DNA of 64,000 nt from Blastocatellia bacterium (GCA_035560235.1 DATMAG010000120.1:3930-67929), one strand, 5' to 3'. Shown: positions 16,254 through 53,801, numbered from the stretch's first letter. The notes: generated from the sequence alone by a model not told the origin. Translations and numbers: made by a program.

Positions 16254-16347
<94 letters not shown>

Positions 16348-27233: not shown

Positions 27234-27363
27234 CACGAATGAACACGAATTCTTCTGAAGAGCGTATGTGAGAAGTGCGGCTCAACTCCTCTTGCCCGCT
27301 CCGCGGACAGGAAGAAATACTGATGTTTCCATCAGTATTCGTGAACATTCGTGTTCATTCGTG
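27234..27363. repeat. MITE-like palindromic element with CACGAATGAACACGAAT terminal inverted repeats
   Basis: Arm 27234-27252 CACGAATGAACACGAATTC and arm 27337-27363 ATTCGTGAACATTCGTGTTCATTCGTG. An internal palindrome GAAATACTGATG..CATCAGTATTC is also present. Confidence 0.6.
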
Positions 27364-29695: not shown

Positions 29696-30934
29696 GTGAG
29701 AAAGTTTCTGGAGATATTTCTGAGCATCCTGACCGCGATGGGCGGGTTCGTTGAAATTGGTGAACTGGTCTTTTCGGTCAATGCGGGCGCGAAGTTCGGT
29801 TTCAGCCTGCTCTGGGTGGTGGCGCTCGGAACTGTCGGCATCATTGTTTACGGCGAAATGGCCGGGCGCGTTGCGGCTGTCGCCAAACAGCCGGTCTTCA
29901 GCCTGATTCGTGAACGCACGGGCTTCACGGTCGGACTCGGAACACTGATCGCGGCCAACATCGTCAGCCTGCTCACCTGCGCGGCTGAAATCGGCGGCCT
30001 GGCGATTATTCTGCGGCTGCTTTCGGGCTGGCCTTACCGGCTGCTGATTGTGGCGGCGTTCGTCGCGCTGCTCGTGATCGTCTGGTTTTTCTCCTTCAAA
30101 TGGATCGAGAGATTTTTCGGACTGCTCGGGCTGCTGATGATTGTCTTTATCGCGGCGGCAGCGGCGCTCGGGCCTGACTGGTCGCAGGTGGCGCTCGGTT
30201 TTATTCCCAATGTTCCGCAGGTCGAATCGCGGGCGGAATACTTCAGCTACGCTTATTTCGTCGTCGCGCTGATGAGTTCGATCATGCTGCCGTATGAAAC
30301 TTACTTCTATGCGTCGGGAGCGATTGAAGACCGGTGGGAACCGGCGGACATCAATGTCAACCGGGTGATCGTCGTCATCGGCTTCGTGCTCGGTTCGCTG
30401 CTCTCGGTCGGGCTGATTCTGATTGGTGCGCAGCTTTTTCTGCCGGTAAAACTCGAACCCGATCTGCCGGGCGCGGCAGCGCTGGGGCCTGTGGCTGCGT
30501 TCGGAAAGACGGGGCTGCTGCTTGCGCTCGCGGGAATGCTCTTCGCCTTCGGTGGCGCGGCGGTCGAAAACGCGCTGACAGGGGCTTACAACCTGGCGCA
30601 GTTTCTCGGCTGGTCGTGGGGGAAGTTTCGCGGGGCAGCGGGCGCGCCGCGCTTCACGCTGGCGTGGCTGGTGATGTTTGCGCTTGCGATGCTGATTGTC
30701 GTGACCGGAGTTGATCCGGTGATGGTCGTTGAATATTCGATCATTTTTTCAGTGATTATTCTGCCGCTCAGTTACCTGCCGCTGCTGATGGTGGCGAGCG
30801 ATGAGCTGATTATGGGGCCGTTTGTGAACGGGTGGCTGGCGAAGACGCTCGGCTGGTTTTATCTGATTGTGATCTGCATCGCGGCGCTGTGCGCCGTGCC
30901 GCTGCTCGTGATTACACACGGAGGGAAGGGATGA
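29696..30934 (+). CDS. NRAMP-superfamily transporter with non-canonical TM1 motif
   Basis: Aligns to MntH TM1-TM6 (FG(F/Y)xLLWVV). It has FVEIGE where MntH has YIDPGN, and IMLPYE where MntH has VMPHNL. Confidence 0.55.
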   Translation: MRKFLEIFLSILTAMGGFVEIGELVFSVNAGAKFGFSLLWVVALGTVGIIVYGEMAGRVAAVAKQPVFSLIRERTGFTVGLGTLIAANIVSLLTCAAEIGGLAIILRLLSGWPYRLLIVAAFVALLVIVWFFSFKWIERFFGLLGLLMIVFIAAAAALGPDWSQVALGFIPNVPQVESRAEYFSYAYFVVALMSSIMLPYETYFYASGAIEDRWEPADINVNRVIVVIGFVLGSLLSVGLILIGAQLFLPVKLEPDLPGAAALGPVAAFGKTGLLLALAGMLFAFGGAAVENALTGAYNLAQFLGWSWGKFRGAAGAPRFTLAWLVMFALAMLIVVTGVDPVMVVEYSIIFSVIILPLSYLPLLMVASDELIMGPFVNGWLAKTLGWFYLIVICIAALCAVPLLVITHGGKG

Positions 30935-31281
30935 AAGCGCCACATCTCGACATCGTGCGGATGGTTCTGGACCGGCAACTGCTCGATTCAAATTACATCG
31001 AATGCGGCAGGGTTGAGGATGTGGAGCTTGAAGGCGGGCCGGATGAACTGAAGGTGACGGCTGTCATCACCGGGCCGGGCGCAGTGACAGATCACTTTCC
31101 GCGCTGGCTGCAACCGCTCGCGCGCCGGGTTTTCGGTCATCGCACGGTGCGTGTGCCCTGGGCAGAGGTGCTGATTATTACAAGCCGGATCAAACTGAAA
31201 TCGCGGGCCGCAGCGCTTGGCCTGGCTGATGAAGATAAGCGGGTCGCGAGGTGGCTCAGAAAGCTGCCGGGATCTGAATGA
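30931..31281 (+). CDS. small PRC-barrel-like protein
   Basis: Short ORF coupled to the transporter stop. Paired with the PRC-barrel ORF downstream. Confidence 0.4.
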   Translation: MKAPHLDIVRMVLDRQLLDSNYIECGRVEDVELEGGPDELKVTAVITGPGAVTDHFPRWLQPLARRVFGHRTVRVPWAEVLIITSRIKLKSRAAALGLADEDKRVARWLRKLPGSE

Positions 31282-31538
31282 AATTATCTGAACTGCTCAG
31301 AATGGAAGTGGTCGCGCGCGACGGCAGGCATCTCGGCTGGGTGATTGACCTGCGCTGCGCGGGCGAACCGGAACACGGCGATGCGCGCCCGGAGCGCATC
31401 GTCAGCGAACTCGTTTACGGCAAGGCCGGGTGGCTTGAACGCCTGGGCTTCAGAGCCGTCAGAGAAAGACGAACTCCCTGGGCCGCAGTCACTGCCATCG
31501 AAAACGGAAGAATCATCATTGCCGATGAAGCTGAATAA
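31278..31538 (+). CDS. PRC-barrel domain protein
   Basis: MEVVARDGRHLGWVIDL...IVSELVY motif, typical of PRC barrels. Confidence 0.5.
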   Translation: MKLSELLRMEVVARDGRHLGWVIDLRCAGEPEHGDARPERIVSELVYGKAGWLERLGFRAVRERRTPWAAVTAIENGRIIIADEAE

Positions 31539-32541: not shown

Positions 32542-32773
32542 CCTGTGCGCGGCTGAATTGAATCAGCCCGGCTTTCAGTTCAGTCTGCCTCAGCCGTCTG
32601 CCATTAAAGTCTGATCAGCAACCCGCCTGAGGCACCCTGCTTGCTGAAGATCAGGCAGGGATTCATCGTTGACAGATCACGATAACGACGGACGGCGGGG
32701 TCGGTCAGTTCGCCGCCGCTCCGCTGTCTTTGGTGAAGTGACGGGGAGCAGATCAGAAGAAGGAGGGAGAACA

Positions 32774-33127
32774 ATGCAGACAGGTCAGCAGCAGAGAGAA
32801 GTGCCGCGCCTCAGTCCGCAGGAAGTCAAAAAGCAGCTGGATCGCGGCGAACAGATTCTCTTCATTGATACACGCAATCCGCAGGCGTGGAGCGAATCGG
32901 ATGTCAAACTGCAGGGCGCGTTGCGTATCCCGGCAGATCAGATCTCTCAGCATCTCGGTGAGATTCCGCGCGACCGTGAAATTGTCACCTACTGCACCTG
33001 ACCGCACGAAGCCTCAAGCGCCCGGGCGGCGCAGGAACTGATGGATCACGGATACTTCAATGTGCATCCGCTCGCGGGCGGGTTCGAGGCGTGGCGCAAG
33101 CTCGGTTATCCGGTCACGCCCAAATAA
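32774..33127 (+). CDS. single-domain rhodanese with in-frame TGA at the catalytic Cys position (candidate Sec selenoprotein)
   Basis: The frame is continuous through TGA 32999-33001 (...IVTYCT-TGA-PHEASSARAAQELMDHGYFNVHPLAGGFEAW...). TGA falls exactly on the active-site Cys column of rhodaneses (GlpE CYHGNSSKGAAQ). RBS GGAGGGAG lies before the ATG at 32774. Confidence 0.55.
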
Positions 33128-33223: not shown

Positions 33224-33258
33224 GGAGCCTCAGCAAAGCTGCTGAGGCTCTTTTTCTT
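33224..33258 (+). terminator. rho-independent terminator
   Basis: GAGCCTCAGC-aaagct-GCTGAGGCTC followed by TTTTTCTTC. Confidence 0.7.
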
Positions 33259-33411
33259 CAGTTCTGACCTGCGGCTGATTCACATGTTCCTGCCGATCCT
33301 CACCCTCAATATCCGCACTGAGAGGCGTCTGAAGAAAAAACAGTTCGCTGTGACATAAGTCATCTCATTGCCGTACAGCTGTGCGCCATGATTACGCTCA
33401 CGGAGGTCACA

Positions 33412-33984
33412 ATGAAGAAGATCAGTTCACTGCAACTGCTCAATCAACCGCTGATTCCTGACTTTTCAGATCCGCTCGCGCTGCTGGTTCATTGTCACGA
33501 GCGGATCGAAAGACAACTGCGCGCACTCGAACGCGCCGGAGAACTGCTGCGCGAGGGTGCGCCTGAAACGCTGCCGATGGCCTTTGTCGCGATTGATCAG
33601 GCCTGCGCGCATTTCGCCGGGCCGGGAGTGAAGCACACTGCCGATGAGGAAGTCTCGCTCTTTCCGCGCCTGCGCGAATGCAGTCAGGCGATGGTGCGCG
33701 AGGCGCTCGCCGCGCTTGATGAACTTGAACCGCAGCATCGCACGGCTGAAAGCCTGCATGCTGAATTTGACGCATTCATCGCTCTGTTGCCGCGTGACGG
33801 ATTGGCTGAACTGTCGAGCCTTGATCGTTATGAAGAACTGACCGCGCAACTGACGGCGCTTTATCGCCCGCATATCCGGCTTGAGAACGAACTGATCTTT
33901 CCCGCCGCAGCCCAGGCTCTCTCACCTGAAGCAATCGCGCTCATTGGCGCTGAAATGCGCGCGCGACGGCAGCGCGCAGGATAA
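33412..33984 (+). CDS. hemerythrin-like (HHE cation-binding) domain protein
   Basis: His/Glu ligand pattern (VHCHERIE; H..ADEE; HAEFD; HIRLENE). Good RBS GGAGG. Confidence 0.5.
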   Translation: MKKISSLQLLNQPLIPDFSDPLALLVHCHERIERQLRALERAGELLREGAPETLPMAFVAIDQACAHFAGPGVKHTADEEVSLFPRLRECSQAMVREALAALDELEPQHRTAESLHAEFDAFIALLPRDGLAELSSLDRYEELTAQLTALYRPHIRLENELIFPAAAQALSPEAIALIGAEMRARRQRAG

Positions 33985-34181
33985 CCCCTCGCGCGGCGTG
34001 AGAACCCGCCACTCACGCCGCGCACGTCTTATCCTGAGACCCTTCCTTCTCTCTCAGACTTTCCTGATCACAGTCGGGCTGATGTCGTGCTGCGGCGATT
34101 CGCGCGAATCGTCGCAGACGGATTTCTGCTGCGCAGTGGCAGATAAGTTGCAAGTCAGTTTGCAGGAGGAGGATCAGCTCG

Positions 34182-36467
34182 ATGAATCACCGAAAACTCT
34201 GGATTGCTCTGGTCGTCGTCATCGTCGCTTCATTTGCGGTGCTGGGCGGAGTCGGTTACAGGATCGCCCGCACTGCGCCGCCGATTCCGCAGCAGGTCGT
34301 CACTTCGGATGGCCGGACAGTAATTGATTCAGGTCAGATTCAGCGCGGGCAGGGCGTCTGGCAGTCGCTCGGCGGGCAGGAGGTCAGCTCGATCTGGGGA
34401 CACGGCGCATATCTGGCTCCGGACTGGACGGCTGACTGGCTGCACCGCGAAGCCGTGTTCATTCTCGACTACTGGGCGCAGCAGGCCGGTGGCCCGAATT
34501 TCAATGCGCTCACGGCTGAACAGCAGGCGGCGCTGCGCGCCAGGCTGCAGGCGGTGATGCGGACCAATACATACGATCAGAGCACCGGACGAGTAACGAT
34601 TGATCTGGTCAGGGCCGAAGCCTTCGAGTCGCTGGCGAAATATTACGGCGACCTGTTTGCGCAGGGCCGCGATGAATATGCGATTCCGCGCGGCGCGCTG
34701 ACCGATGCGACCAAAGCGCGCGAAATGGGCGCGTTCTTCTGGTGGACTTCGTGGGTGGCTTCGACGAATCGTCCGGGTCAGGATGTGACATACACGCAGA
34801 ACTGGCCGCACGAACCGCTGACTGGCAACACGCCTACGGGCAGTTCAGTCGTCTGGAGCGTCATCAGCTTCGTGCTGCTGCTCGCGGGGATTGGCGGAAT
34901 GGTCTGGTATTTCGTGGCGCAGGAACGCGACACGCGGCACGAGGATCTGCCGTCGCACGACCCGCTGCTCGGCCTGCAGCCGACGCCATCGCAGCGCGCC
35001 ACGGTCAAATATTTCTTCGTTGTCGCGGCGCTCGTCGTCGTGCAGTGCGGGCTTGGCGCAGTGACGGCGCATTACGGCGTGGAAGGATCGAGCTTTTACG
35101 GCCTGCCGATTGATCAGGGACTGCCCTATTCAGTGGCGCGCACGTGGCACATGCAACTGGGGCTGTTCTGGATTGCGACTTCGTGGCTGGCGACGGGACT
35201 TTACATTGCGCCTGCGGTCAGCGGTTATGAGCCGCGCGGGCAGCGGCTCGGCGTCAATCTGCTTTTTGCGGCGCTGCTGTTTGTGGTGATTGGCTCGCTC
35301 GCGGGCGAATGGCTTGGCATCAGACAGCGGCTGGGTGATTACTGGTTCTGGTTCGGCGCGCAGGGCTATGAATATGTTGACCTGGGGCGCTTCTGGCAGA
35401 TTCTGCTCTTTGCCGGGCTGGTCTTCTGGCTCTGGCTGATGTGGCACGCGCTGCGTCCGGCGCTGGCTGAACGCAACGAGAGCCGTTCGCTGCTGAGCCT
35501 CTTTCTGGTGGCGAGCATTGCCATTCCGCTCTTTTATGCGGCGGGACTGATGTACGGGCAGCGCAGCCATCTGGTAGTCGCCGAATACTGGCGCTGGTGG
35601 GTGGTGCATCTGTGGGTCGAAGGTTTCTTTGAAGTCTTTGCCACAGTCGTCATCGCCTTTCTGTTTACGCGGCTGCGGCTGCTTTCGACCGGCACGGCGA
35701 CAAAGGCTGTGCTGTTCTCAACGGTCGTCTTTCTTTCAGGCGGAATCATAGGGACATTCCATCACCTCTATTTCAGCGGCACGCCGAACGTGGTGCTGGC
35801 GCTGGGCGCGACCTTCAGCGCGCTGGAAGTCGTCCCGCTGGTGCTGATCGGCTTTGAGGCGTGGGAGAACATCCGGCTGGCGCGGGCCAGGAACTGGCTG
35901 ACGGCCTGTCGCTGGCCGATCTGGTTCTTCGTGTCGGTCGCGTTCTGGAACTTCGTCGGCGCGGGACTGTTCGGGTTTCTGATCAATCCGCCGATTGCGC
36001 TCTATTTCAGGCAGGGACTCAACACGACTCCGGTGCATGGGCACACGGCGCTCTTTGGCGTCTACGGGATGCTCGGCATCGGGCTGATGCTCTTCTGCCT
36101 GCGCGCGCTGCAGCCGGGGCGGGCGTGGAAGGACTGGCCGCTGCGAACGGCCTTCTGGACGATCAACGGCGGACTGCTGCTGATGGTGCTGCTCAGCCTG
36201 CTGCCGATTGGCCTGATGCAGACCTGGGCGGCAGTTGAATACGGCACCTGGTATGCGCGTTCGGCGGAGTTTCTGCAGACCGGACTGATGGACACGCTGC
36301 GCTGGCTGCGCGTAATCGGTGACACGATCTTTGCGTTTGGCGCAGTGGTGCTGGGCTGGTTCGTGCTCGGACTCGTGACGGGTCATTCGTATGATGAACG
36401 CGGCACCGTTGCGCCGGGCGAATCCGAAGTCCGCACCGGCCCCGCTCCGGCTCCCGCAGGAGACTGA
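34182..36467 (+). CDS. norZ: quinol-dependent nitric oxide reductase (qNOR, NorZ-type)
   Basis: 761 aa. An N-terminal TM plus periplasmic extension, then a 12-TM heme-copper-oxidase-like core with conserved His. Confidence 0.75.
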   Translation: MNHRKLWIALVVVIVASFAVLGGVGYRIARTAPPIPQQVVTSDGRTVIDSGQIQRGQGVWQSLGGQEVSSIWGHGAYLAPDWTADWLHREAVFILDYWAQQAGGPNFNALTAEQQAALRARLQAVMRTNTYDQSTGRVTIDLVRAEAFESLAKYYGDLFAQGRDEYAIPRGALTDATKAREMGAFFWWTSWVASTNRPGQDVTYTQNWPHEPLTGNTPTGSSVVWSVISFVLLLAGIGGMVWYFVAQERDTRHEDLPSHDPLLGLQPTPSQRATVKYFFVVAALVVVQCGLGAVTAHYGVEGSSFYGLPIDQGLPYSVARTWHMQLGLFWIATSWLATGLYIAPAVSGYEPRGQRLGVNLLFAALLFVVIGSLAGEWLGIRQRLGDYWFWFGAQGYEYVDLGRFWQILLFAGLVFWLWLMWHALRPALAERNESRSLLSLFLVASIAIPLFYAAGLMYGQRSHLVVAEYWRWWVVHLWVEGFFEVFATVVIAFLFTRLRLLSTGTATKAVLFSTVVFLSGGIIGTFHHLYFSGTPNVVLALGATFSALEVVPLVLIGFEAWENIRLARARNWLTACRWPIWFFVSVAFWNFVGAGLFGFLINPPIALYFRQGLNTTPVHGHTALFGVYGMLGIGLMLFCLRALQPGRAWKDWPLRTAFWTINGGLLLMVLLSLLPIGLMQTWAAVEYGTWYARSAEFLQTGLMDTLRWLRVIGDTIFAFGAVVLGWFVLGLVTGHSYDERGTVAPGESEVRTGPAPAPAGD

Positions 36468-52125: not shown

Positions 52126-52608
52126 TCAGGCCGGGCGTCCGATGATCGGGGGATGGCTTTCGTAGCTGCCTGCTGCGTGCCGCTCACGGCGGCGCAGGAG
52201 CGTATCAAGGGCAAGGACATTGTACTCAGAGTAGAAGATCAGAAAGAACGTGCAGAGTGAATAGAGCAGATTCTGTGCGACTGTCTGCGGCTGTTGCAGC
52301 AGAATCACTCCAATCGTCAGCCCCATCATCAGGACTGCCATCAGCGACAGGCCCACCAGCGTAAACAGACCGAGCAGTACCAGCACGCCGACAATGATTT
52401 CAAGAAAGGGCAGAAGCAGACTGAAGAGATGAACCAGGCCGGACGGCGCAGGTGTCTTTGCAAACTGCCCGCCCATCATTTCGGCAAAAGCGCCCGGCCC
52501 CGCCATCAGCTTGCCGAGACCATAAAAGAGAAAGATCAGCCCGAGGCTGACTCTCAGCAAAAGGTATCCCCAGTGTTTGTAGCTTTCCATATGCTCCTCC
52601 CTTCGCAA
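52126..52608 (-). CDS. DoxX-family membrane protein
   Basis: Four TM helices and a DoxX-like N-terminus (YLLLRVSLGLIFLFYGLGKL). Confidence 0.6.
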   Translation of the reverse strand: MRREEHMESYKHWGYLLLRVSLGLIFLFYGLGKLMAGPGAFAEMMGGQFAKTPAPSGLVHLFSLLLPFLEIIVGVLVLLGLFTLVGLSLMAVLMMGLTIGVILLQQPQTVAQNLLYSLCTFFLIFYSEYNVLALDTLLRRRERHAAGSYESHPPIIGRPA

Positions 52609-53172
52609 TCAGGCTCCGGCCCGTGTTTCCGGCTGAGGACGCGCGTCGGGCGGCGGAGTCCCGGTTTCATCTTCTTCGTCTTCTGTCTCTTCAATCAAAG
52701 CCGGATTCAGATCAGCTTCACTGAGCCGTTCCATCAGCCAGTGACGAAAGATTTCAGCTTCGTGGCCTTTGCGCGTCCACCGCGCGCGATTGAACATCGT
52801 CATCGCCATCATCAGCGCGTGATGCTGCCCGGCGCGATCACCGGCCAGTTCAAACTGATGATACAGGCGATCAATCAAATCCACGCTCTGCCGCGCCGCC
52901 TCTTCATCTCTGAAGCCGAGCTTCCCGGCAAAGAATCTTGAGTAAACATTCATCGGCTGGCCGGTCGTCGTGTACAGATCGAAATAGCCGCTGATCAGTC
53001 CCGCCTGCTGCAGAACCGAAGCGACATAACCGGGCCGCGAGCCGGTAATCATTGCCAGATCCTCAACGCTGCCCACGCCGTTCGTGAAGAGCGCAATGAT
53101 CTGATCCTTTTTCGATACGCGCCGCTCGCGCTGCGCGCCTGATTCACGTTCACGCATTAAGTCTCGTTTCAT
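52609..53172 (-). CDS. hypothetical protein with putative N-terminal HTH and acidic C-terminus
   Basis: Upstream of and coupled to doxX; no confident domain. Start uncertain. Confidence 0.35.
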   Translation of the reverse strand: MKRDLMRERESGAQRERRVSKKDQIIALFTNGVGSVEDLAMITGSRPGYVASVLQQAGLISGYFDLYTTTGQPMNVYSRFFAGKLGFRDEEAARQSVDLIDRLYHQFELAGDRAGQHHALMMAMTMFNRARWTRKGHEAEIFRHWLMERLSEADLNPALIEETEDEEDETGTPPPDARPQPETRAGA

Positions 53173-53177
53173 ACACT

Positions 53178-53801
53178 GTGAATAGTATGCAAATTGCAAG
53201 CCTCATCGGTGCCATGCCGAAACAGCAGTTGAAGAAAAAAGCTGAGAATGAACGGCGGCTCGAAGAACTGGCCGCCGCAATTCGCGTCTGTGTCAGATGC
53301 CCGCTGCACGAATCGCGCACTCTGGCCGTGCCGGGCGACGGAACAGTGAAGGCAAAGGTGATGATTATCGGCGAAGCGCCGGGGCGCGATGAGGATACGA
53401 CCGGACATCCGTTTGTGGGCGCAGCCGGGCGCTTTCTCGACTCGGTGCTTGAGGGCAGCGGCATCAGACGCGAGGATCTTTTCATCACCAACACGGTCAA
53501 ATGCCGTCCGCCGCAGAACCGCACGCCGCGCAGGCTGGAAGTTGACACCTGCACCTCGAACTATCTGTTCGAGCAGATTGAACTCATCAATCCGCAGCTC
53601 GTCATGCTGCTCGGCAGCGTGGCGGCAAAAAAAGTGCTGGGAATCAAAACCATCGGCGAGGCGCGCGGGCAGGTCATCGAACGCGACGGGCGCAAATATC
53701 TGGTCGGTTATCACCCGGCAGTCAGGTTTTATCGTGAAGACCTGGCCGAAAAGGTCAGAGAGGATTTCGATCTGCTCAGAAGAGTAATCGAACAATTGTA
53801 A
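53178..53801 (+). CDS. uracil-DNA glycosylase, family 4
   Basis: GEAPGRDED motif, Cys ligands (CVRCPLHE...) and an HPA(V) C-terminal motif. Confidence 0.75.
   Translation: MNSMQIASLIGAMPKQQLKKKAENERRLEELAAAIRVCVRCPLHESRTLAVPGDGTVKAKVMIIGEAPGRDEDTTGHPFVGAAGRFLDSVLEGSGIRREDLFITNTVKCRPPQNRTPRRLEVDTCTSNYLFEQIELINPQLVMLLGSVAAKKVLGIKTIGEARGQVIERDGRKYLVGYHPAVRFYREDLAEKVREDFDLLRRVIEQL

Follow-up and report, generated by a model that had tools for sequence, protein, structure and literature searches.

Based on a comparative analysis of a 64,000-nucleotide stretch of Blastocatellia bacterium DNA (hereafter the window), we propose, with a probability of about 0.92, that positions 32774-33127 constitute a single intact gene whose product is a rhodanese selenoprotein of 117 residues and one domain; in this gene an internal UGA would be decoded as selenocysteine (Sec), and a hairpin just downstream of it would serve as the SECIS. 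In the light of the comparative data, Sec would be the only reasonable reading of this TGA. The case is demonstrated at the level of the recoded UGA, its conservation, its Cys alternates, the SECIS and the fold. The gene belongs to a known kind of selenoprotein, the CxU rhodanese; the new points are a sister clade missed by the curated family model, the spread of this clade in soil Acidobacteriota, and the placement of Sec at +2 from the conserved rhodanese cysteine.

The reading frame runs from MQTG to REIVTYCT (75 codons), passes through the TGA, continues as PHEASSARAAQELMDHGYFNVHPLAGGFEAWRKLGYPVTPK (41 codons) and ends at a TAA codon (Table 1). The preliminary description of this DNA, made from the sequence alone, had noted an ORF ending at ...REIVTYCT and TGA with the same frame open for 41 more codons, a C-terminal rhodanese half after the TGA, a cysteine two residues before it, and the use of TGA as a standard stop elsewhere in the window, and all four observations were borne out. 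Translation confirmed the frame, and with Cys substituted at the TGA the Pfam Rhodanese domain (PF00581) spans the codon, matching residues 14-109 (E=1.2e-14), with the HPL and GGF-AW motifs encoded downstream of it. The upstream cysteine is Cys74. In the window, TGA ends 30 of the 40 long non-overlapping ORFs; since it is an ordinary stop there, the genome is not TGA-recoded. A separate Logan assembly of run SRR7882662 agrees with the window throughout a 10,175-bp stretch that contains the gene (100% identity), TGA included. In GenBank the product is entered as 'MAG TPA: rhodanese-like domain-containing protein [Blastocatellia bacterium]', with a length of 75 aa.

Table 1. Features of the rhodanese gene and its immediate surroundings, in window positions
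Feature	Position	Strand	Remarks
Shine-Dalgarno-like AAGGAGGGAG	32760-32769	+	4 nt 5' of the ATG at 32774; by direct reading
Complete selenoprotein gene	32774-33127	+	117 codons, Met1-Lys117 including predicted Sec76, then TAA at 33125-33127; by translation
TGC codon, Cys74	32993-32995	+	'YC' cysteine common to rhodaneses; putative C-x-U partner of Sec76
UGA read as selenocysteine, residue 76	32999-33001	+	TGA/Cys alternation in orthologs
Predicted bacterial SECIS core hairpin	33018-33032	+	stem 33018-33022/33028-33032, apical loop CGGGC at 33023-33027
Intrinsic terminator	33225-33255	+	11-bp perfect stem, 4-nt loop, T-run, about 100 nt past the stop

An ortholog scan with one genome per species yielded 80 loci, nearly all of them from Pyrinomonadaceae, Blastocatellia or unclassified Acidobacteriota, with one MAG labelled Thermoanaerobaculia and one labelled 'delta proteobacterium'. 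The homologous codon is TGA in 59 of these loci and TGT or TGC in the other 21. The earlier suggestion of a Sec/Cys pair in an otherwise intact rhodanese domain therefore held up, both in this alternation, which places Cys in the TGA column of the homolog alignment at 21 of 80 orthologous loci, and in the coding constraint 3' of the TGA that is described below. Because the nearest relative of several Cys forms is a Sec form, at 86-90% identity, repeated exchange is suggested, and Sec and Cys may have been swapped more than once within this rhodanese clade.

The same column was followed in a search of a 5.8-billion-protein collection, from which the best 120 clusters were taken. Ninety-nine of these gene calls stop exactly at ...YCT (96 of them at TYCT) and 13 read on with Cys at the Sec column, with W, E or S found there in the other eight. 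Among the truncated calls is the product of the window gene itself. Tryptophan occurs in three of the database homologs among these best 120 clusters and may represent a TGA translated by the gene caller with an alternative genetic code, and the E and S homologs suggest forms that operate with C74 alone. Among the full-length homologs with one of these three residues are P0005, P0012, P0017, P0019, P0021 and P0023, in which Cys74 is mostly kept.

The preliminary description had considered the hairpin downstream of the TGA unconvincing on its own. This part of the assessment stood: the minimum free energy (MFE) of the window hairpin is -9.4 kcal/mol bare and -10.7 kcal/mol with flanking pairs, and when it is folded alone its stability does not exceed that of shuffles (z = -0.14 and -0.94). 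Because the single-sequence fold is not significant, only the comparative data carry weight for a SECIS, and these data turn the hairpin into a well-supported one. In the window, the hairpin GCGCC-CGGGC-GGCGC begins 16 nt after the UGA, with 21 nt (33002-33022) between the UGA and the loop. The consensus of the TGA genes is GCGCC-NGUGU-GGCGC at the same position and with identical spacing, without indels among the aligned genes, and a consensus fold of 56 sequences recovers the same 5-bp helix. The hairpin overlaps the codons Ser-Ala-Arg-Val-Ala and, since amino-acid conservation could mimic a hairpin, the Cys-type genes were used as a control. Of the 60 UGA genes, 59 form all five base pairs, as opposed to three of the 16 Cys genes. 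At codons +7 to +10, the third-position entropy amounts to 0.13, 0.37, 0.13 and 0.49 bits in the UGA genes versus 1.62, 1.81, 1.50 and 1.59 bits in the Cys genes; in the flanking codons it is similar in the two groups. Double changes from C-G to U-A are present at two pairs (six sequences and one sequence), all of them synonymous. The covariation score was reached by none of 500 shuffles, and pairing, which stands at 92%, falls to 23-56% when the partner columns are slid. In the loop, position 2 is G in all 60 UGA genes and the next base is U in 55 and G in five; the CGGGC loop of the window is unique among the 60.

The published bSECIS model, as quoted in PMC13188914, has an apical loop of 3-9 nt, an upper stem of 4-16 bp with an MFE of at most -7.5 kcal/mol, a G at loop position 1 or 2 that is usually followed by G or U, and a distance of 16-37 nt from the UGA to the apical loop. 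In the stretch around 32995-33070, where a SECIS had been proposed to be sought, the hairpin at 33018-33032 agrees with this model in all four structural respects (5-nt loop, 5-bp stem, CGGGC, 21 nt). No Rfam family matched the window at gathering thresholds, nor did any match 32960-33100 at E<=10. A longer lower stem, pairing columns 16-17 with 37-38, was considered and rejected, being paired in just 72-74% and showing no covariation. We read 33018-33032 as a putative bacterial SECIS that is conserved and covarying. It resembles the E. coli fdhF-type SECIS and the bSECIS consensus (Zhang & Gladyshev 2005) in lying in the coding sequence just 3' of the UGA, in its small apical loop with G and then G or U near the 5' side, and in its 21-nt spacing, which falls within 16-37 nt. 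It differs from them in its conserved stem, which is very short (5 bp; the AGUGU variants have a sixth pair and a loop of 3 nt), in the unsupported extension of the lower stem, and in matching no Rfam model. The clade offers a clean natural example of a SECIS reduced to a minimal 5 bp, in which Sec and Cys appear to have been exchanged repeatedly and the hairpin decays once Cys replaces Sec.

By the established bacterial mechanism, the hairpin, located in the coding sequence 16 nt after the UGA, would act as the SECIS by binding SelB-GTP with Sec-tRNA(Sec), which would bring Sec to the ribosome at the UGA. The SelB dependence, the selenium content and the chemistry of the window protein are inferred. 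The Sec machinery was searched for in the window and in related loci. ARAGORN detected no tRNA gene in the 64-kb window, and in 60 related loci it detected no tRNA-Sec. With E. coli SelA, SelB and SelD as queries, tblastn returned nothing in the window, and Logan contigs that extend the window by roughly 3.5 kb on one side and 0.5 kb on the opposite side contained no Sec genes. Among 83 fetched loci, the same tblastn queries detected only SelB, in two Pyrinomonadaceae genomes. Both are full-length selB genes (L037, 16634-18535, minus strand; L047, 13531-15450, minus strand) located 3-6 kb from a Cys-type rhodanese, and next to them selA, selD and tRNA-Sec were not found. The L047 SelB has 639 aa and carries the SelB winged-helix domains PF09106 and PF09107. 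A search with this protein returned at least 120 clusters at identities of at least 67%, all with both domains, and the named clusters among the matches listed are from Pyrinomonadaceae or Acidobacteriota only. As early as 2006, Acidobacteria were listed among the users of Sec (PMC1794560). In the Pyrinomonadaceae and Blastocatellia, abundant soil bacteria that the selenoproteome papers compared here do not treat at family level, Sec decoding appears to be routine.

The alternative that survives best, although we consider it improbable, is that the UGA is read through without a Sec system, either through a tRNA of the opal-suppressor or tRNA(Sec)-like kind (allo-tRNAs, for instance) or through near-cognate insertion of Trp or Cys, so that the product would hold Cys, Trp or another residue at position 76. 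Acidobacterial allo-tRNAs have been proposed as nonsense suppressors (PMC5389517), but a general suppressor would be costly, since stops in the window are mainly TGA. Tryptophan does stand at the Sec column in the three homologs mentioned above, perhaps as a gene-caller code effect, yet the natural alternate in this column is Cys, not Trp. Of the Sec machinery, selB with PF09106 and PF09107 is widespread in the lineage, which speaks against this alternative; for the genome itself, none was found within the 64-kb window or the few kb added to it, which leaves some room for it. Finally, a covarying hairpin with bSECIS geometry (G at loop position 2, 21 nt from the UGA) is what SelB would need, unlike simple suppression, and this argues for decoding as Sec.

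The sequence 3' of the TGA was analyzed in 56 TGA genes over 39 codons. Stop codons are absent from frame 0 in this set, in contrast to 44 and 57 stops in the other two frames. At third positions, pairwise differences amount to 0.52 downstream of the TGA and 0.56 upstream of it; at first and second positions the corresponding values are 0.17 and 0.15. All 56 genes share a C-terminus of the same ...EPK type. Because the downstream frame is open and evolves in a codon-like manner, we rule out that the gene is a pseudogene, that the TGA is a sequencing error, and that it is a true stop yielding a product of 75 residues. Of these, a true stop at the UGA, which would leave a half-domain of 75 residues and require the downstream conservation to reflect an RNA or regulatory element only, is in our view very improbable. 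The short product is consistently predicted by gene callers, but the 39 downstream codons show codon-type substitutions, are free of stops in frame 0 only and supply the C-terminal half of the rhodanese fold, which is conserved (HPL, GGF-AW), the Cys-type orthologs are translated as a single 110-aa protein, and the 75-residue fragment, judged from the AF2 model of the Cys homolog P0001, would be without the active-site loop and two core secondary-structure elements. The least probable explanation, that of a pseudogene or an assembly or sequencing error in which a TGC or TGT Cys codon became TGA through a nonsense change, leaving a dead or mis-read gene, would accord with the mere 75-aa fragment in the GenBank annotation and with the absence of Sec machinery from the 64-kb window, but not with a TGA that recurs in 59 of 80 distinct species genomes ahead of an intact and constrained frame, with an RNA hairpin that is kept specifically in the TGA genes, or with the same base in the second assembly of SRR7882662.

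The preliminary description had placed the TGA exactly on the catalytic cysteine, and our alignments indicate that this is only half right, because Sec76 lies at +2 from the conserved C74. The part that stands is the register of the following helix. In BLASTP and hhalign alignments with E. coli GlpE, Sec76 is opposite the catalytic Cys65, with 'CT' (74-75) as a two-residue insertion, and gapless HMMER alignments to 6MXV and 1YT8 likewise put Sec76 at the catalytic Cys. The register of the preceding strand and the conservation across relatives point instead to C74. In a MAFFT alignment of 146 representatives, obtained by a profile search of 1.84 billion proteins, the canonical 'hhhYC' cysteine corresponds to C74; it is Cys in 130 of the 146 relatives and invariant within the clade. 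Position 76 exists in this alignment only in an extended-loop subfamily, 'YC-x-x-P-x-E-x-S-S', with Cys in 35 sequences and G, S, D or A in the rest. Among the representatives listed for this alignment, thirteen end at ...YCT. The active-site loop of the window protein is two residues longer than the canonical one, with 'CT' or its equivalent inserted by both MAFFT and hhalign, and reads T-U-P-H-E-A-S-S without Arg or Lys. The six-residue rhodanese loop (C-x4-[R/S/T]) with basic thiosulfate-binding residues is absent from the window protein, which belongs to an extended-loop subfamily of the form 'YC-x-[C/U]-P-x-E-x-S-S'. Our reading is that C74 is probably the ancestral rhodanese cysteine and Sec76 a second, clade-specific chalcogen in a longer, non-basic loop.

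The AF2 model of P0001, which is 62% identical to the window protein, has a pLDDT of 90.3 and matches the single-domain rhodaneses 3TP9, 3NHV and 6MXV with TM scores of 0.75-0.81. In this model the central strand (62-66) stops at the Tyr, the conserved Cys is the first residue beyond it, the loop is C-T-C-P-H-E, and the helix begins four residues past the second Cys. Compared with E. coli GlpE and other single-domain thiosulfate sulfurtransferases (1GMX; the rhodanese domains of 3TP9 and 6MXV), the window protein shares the fold and, with GlpE, 31% identity, the signature H-x-x-S-S...AAQ-L...GGFEAW and the gapless match of Sec76 to Cys65. It differs from the GlpE type in the loop between the end of the 'YC' strand and the helix, which is two residues longer, and in having two chalcogen residues, C74 and U76; thiosulfate-binding rhodaneses have an Arg or Lys in the loop, in contrast to U-P-H-E-A-S-S here, which contains no basic residue. 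One of the best structural matches is BH2092 (3NHV/3O3W; TM 0.79), an uncharacterised extended-loop rhodanese with the same TYC-x-x-P and a longer loop, but in BH2092 Gly stands in place of Sec, the second Cys follows three residues later (CWGPAC), and the protein is no selenoprotein.

C74 and U76 could form a redox pair through a C-x-U selenenylsulfide, in which Sec76, with Cys74 as its partner, would be the nucleophile attacking a substrate that offers sulfane sulfur or another oxidised chalcogen. Such a C74-x-U76 selenenylsulfide pair would most likely be the working unit. We put forward a broader reading only tentatively, as something that may well prove wrong: a distinct, uncurated TYCTU subfamily would prevail in soil Pyrinomonadaceae and Blastocatellia (59 of 80 loci), using the C74-U76 selenenylsulfide and not acting as a classical thiosulfate sulfurtransferase, and Sec would not be the canonical nucleophile, the enzyme being, for example, a reductase of persulfides, polysulfides or other chalcogens.

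Among NCBIfam models, the best match of the window protein is NF041203, 'rhodanese_LYCAU, rhodanese-related (seleno)protein' (E=6e-33, 113.2 bits), the model of the 'form 3' CxU rhodanese selenoprotein, aligned over residues 5-117 to model positions 15-126 of 126, with the next family at 54 bits. The curated cutoff of NF041203 is 115 bits, which the window protein misses, and nine further members of the clade, both Sec- and Cys-type, score 89.7-111.6 bits, all below this cutoff. The annotation of a 75-aa fragment in GenBank fits these sub-cutoff scores. The CxU rhodanese selenoprotein is catalogued in two reviews (PMC13188914, PMC9312934), both of which credit Zhang & Gladyshev 2005; the remark in the preliminary description that rhodanese selenoproteins had already been reported is thus correct, as the existence of NF041203 also attests. 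The window protein, a single rhodanese domain, carries C-x-U in its active-site loop as Y-C74-T-U76-P-H-E. Judged by these scores, the acidobacterial TYCTU clade appears to be a close sister just outside the curated NF041203 equivalog. The two have in common a single rhodanese domain of about 110-126 aa and Sec at the same C-x-U place in the active-site loop, and LYC[AT]C-P-x-E Cys versions are found among the wider relatives; they differ in the motif, which is TYCTU here and LYCAU there, and in the annotation of the window clade as truncated fragments. About a hundred database clusters are likewise mis-annotated, being cut at ...YCT. As curated, NF041203 misses the clade by a few bits, and a lower cutoff or a sister model would repair many annotations in soil MAGs.

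With its own Shine-Dalgarno run and a strong terminator, the rhodanese gene looks monocistronic. The terminator (-26.4 kcal/mol, z = -4.3, none of 200 shuffles equally stable) was not among the results of a consensus terminator scan, and it sets the gene apart from the downstream hemerythrin and NorB genes. Upstream in the window lies a YVTN-type beta-propeller protein. Downstream, a hemerythrin-domain protein (33388-33984) is followed by a quinol-type nitric oxide reductase (34182-36467; NorB cytochrome-c-like domain and COX1), and together (33388-36467) they are a typical NO-detoxification pair. Operon context common to the window and the related loci was not found. About 20-23 related loci, both Sec- and Cys-type (e.g., L003, L013 and L052), have a conserved trio 0.5-3 kb upstream of the rhodanese, consisting of a pirin-like protein, a GAF-domain protein similar to free methionine sulfoxide reductase and a YdeP/FdhF-like molybdopterin oxidoreductase of 780 aa, all named by eye from their sequences; the trio is absent from the window, and genomic context yields no function for the rhodanese gene. 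Between an Nramp transporter and the beta-propeller gene there are two small overlapping ORFs, 30832-31281, which has no Pfam match, and 31278-31538, which has a weak PRC-barrel match.

In a scan of the window for TGAs that lie in frame between two potentially coding flanks, the TGA at 32999 ranks second. A second selenoprotein candidate, the TGA at 52609-52611 on the minus strand, was rejected. It lies within 52126-53199 (minus strand), where two adjacent genes share the same frame and the second has its own Met start and encodes a hydrophobic membrane protein, so that we regard this as ordinary gene adjacency. According to the ORF list, the remaining in-frame TGA candidates are antisense to longer ORFs or located at the boundaries of neighbouring genes, and they were likewise set aside.

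Direct repeats of CATTCGTG, 10 nt apart, were observed in intergenic positions at 16257-16284 (minus strand), 27234-27251 (minus strand) and 27336-27363 (plus strand). There are two or three units per site, and the window contains seven matches with at most two mismatches against 0.07 expected. Two of the repeat copies oppose each other upstream of a CtaG/cytochrome c cluster, and the arrangement looks like a possible operator for a transcription factor.
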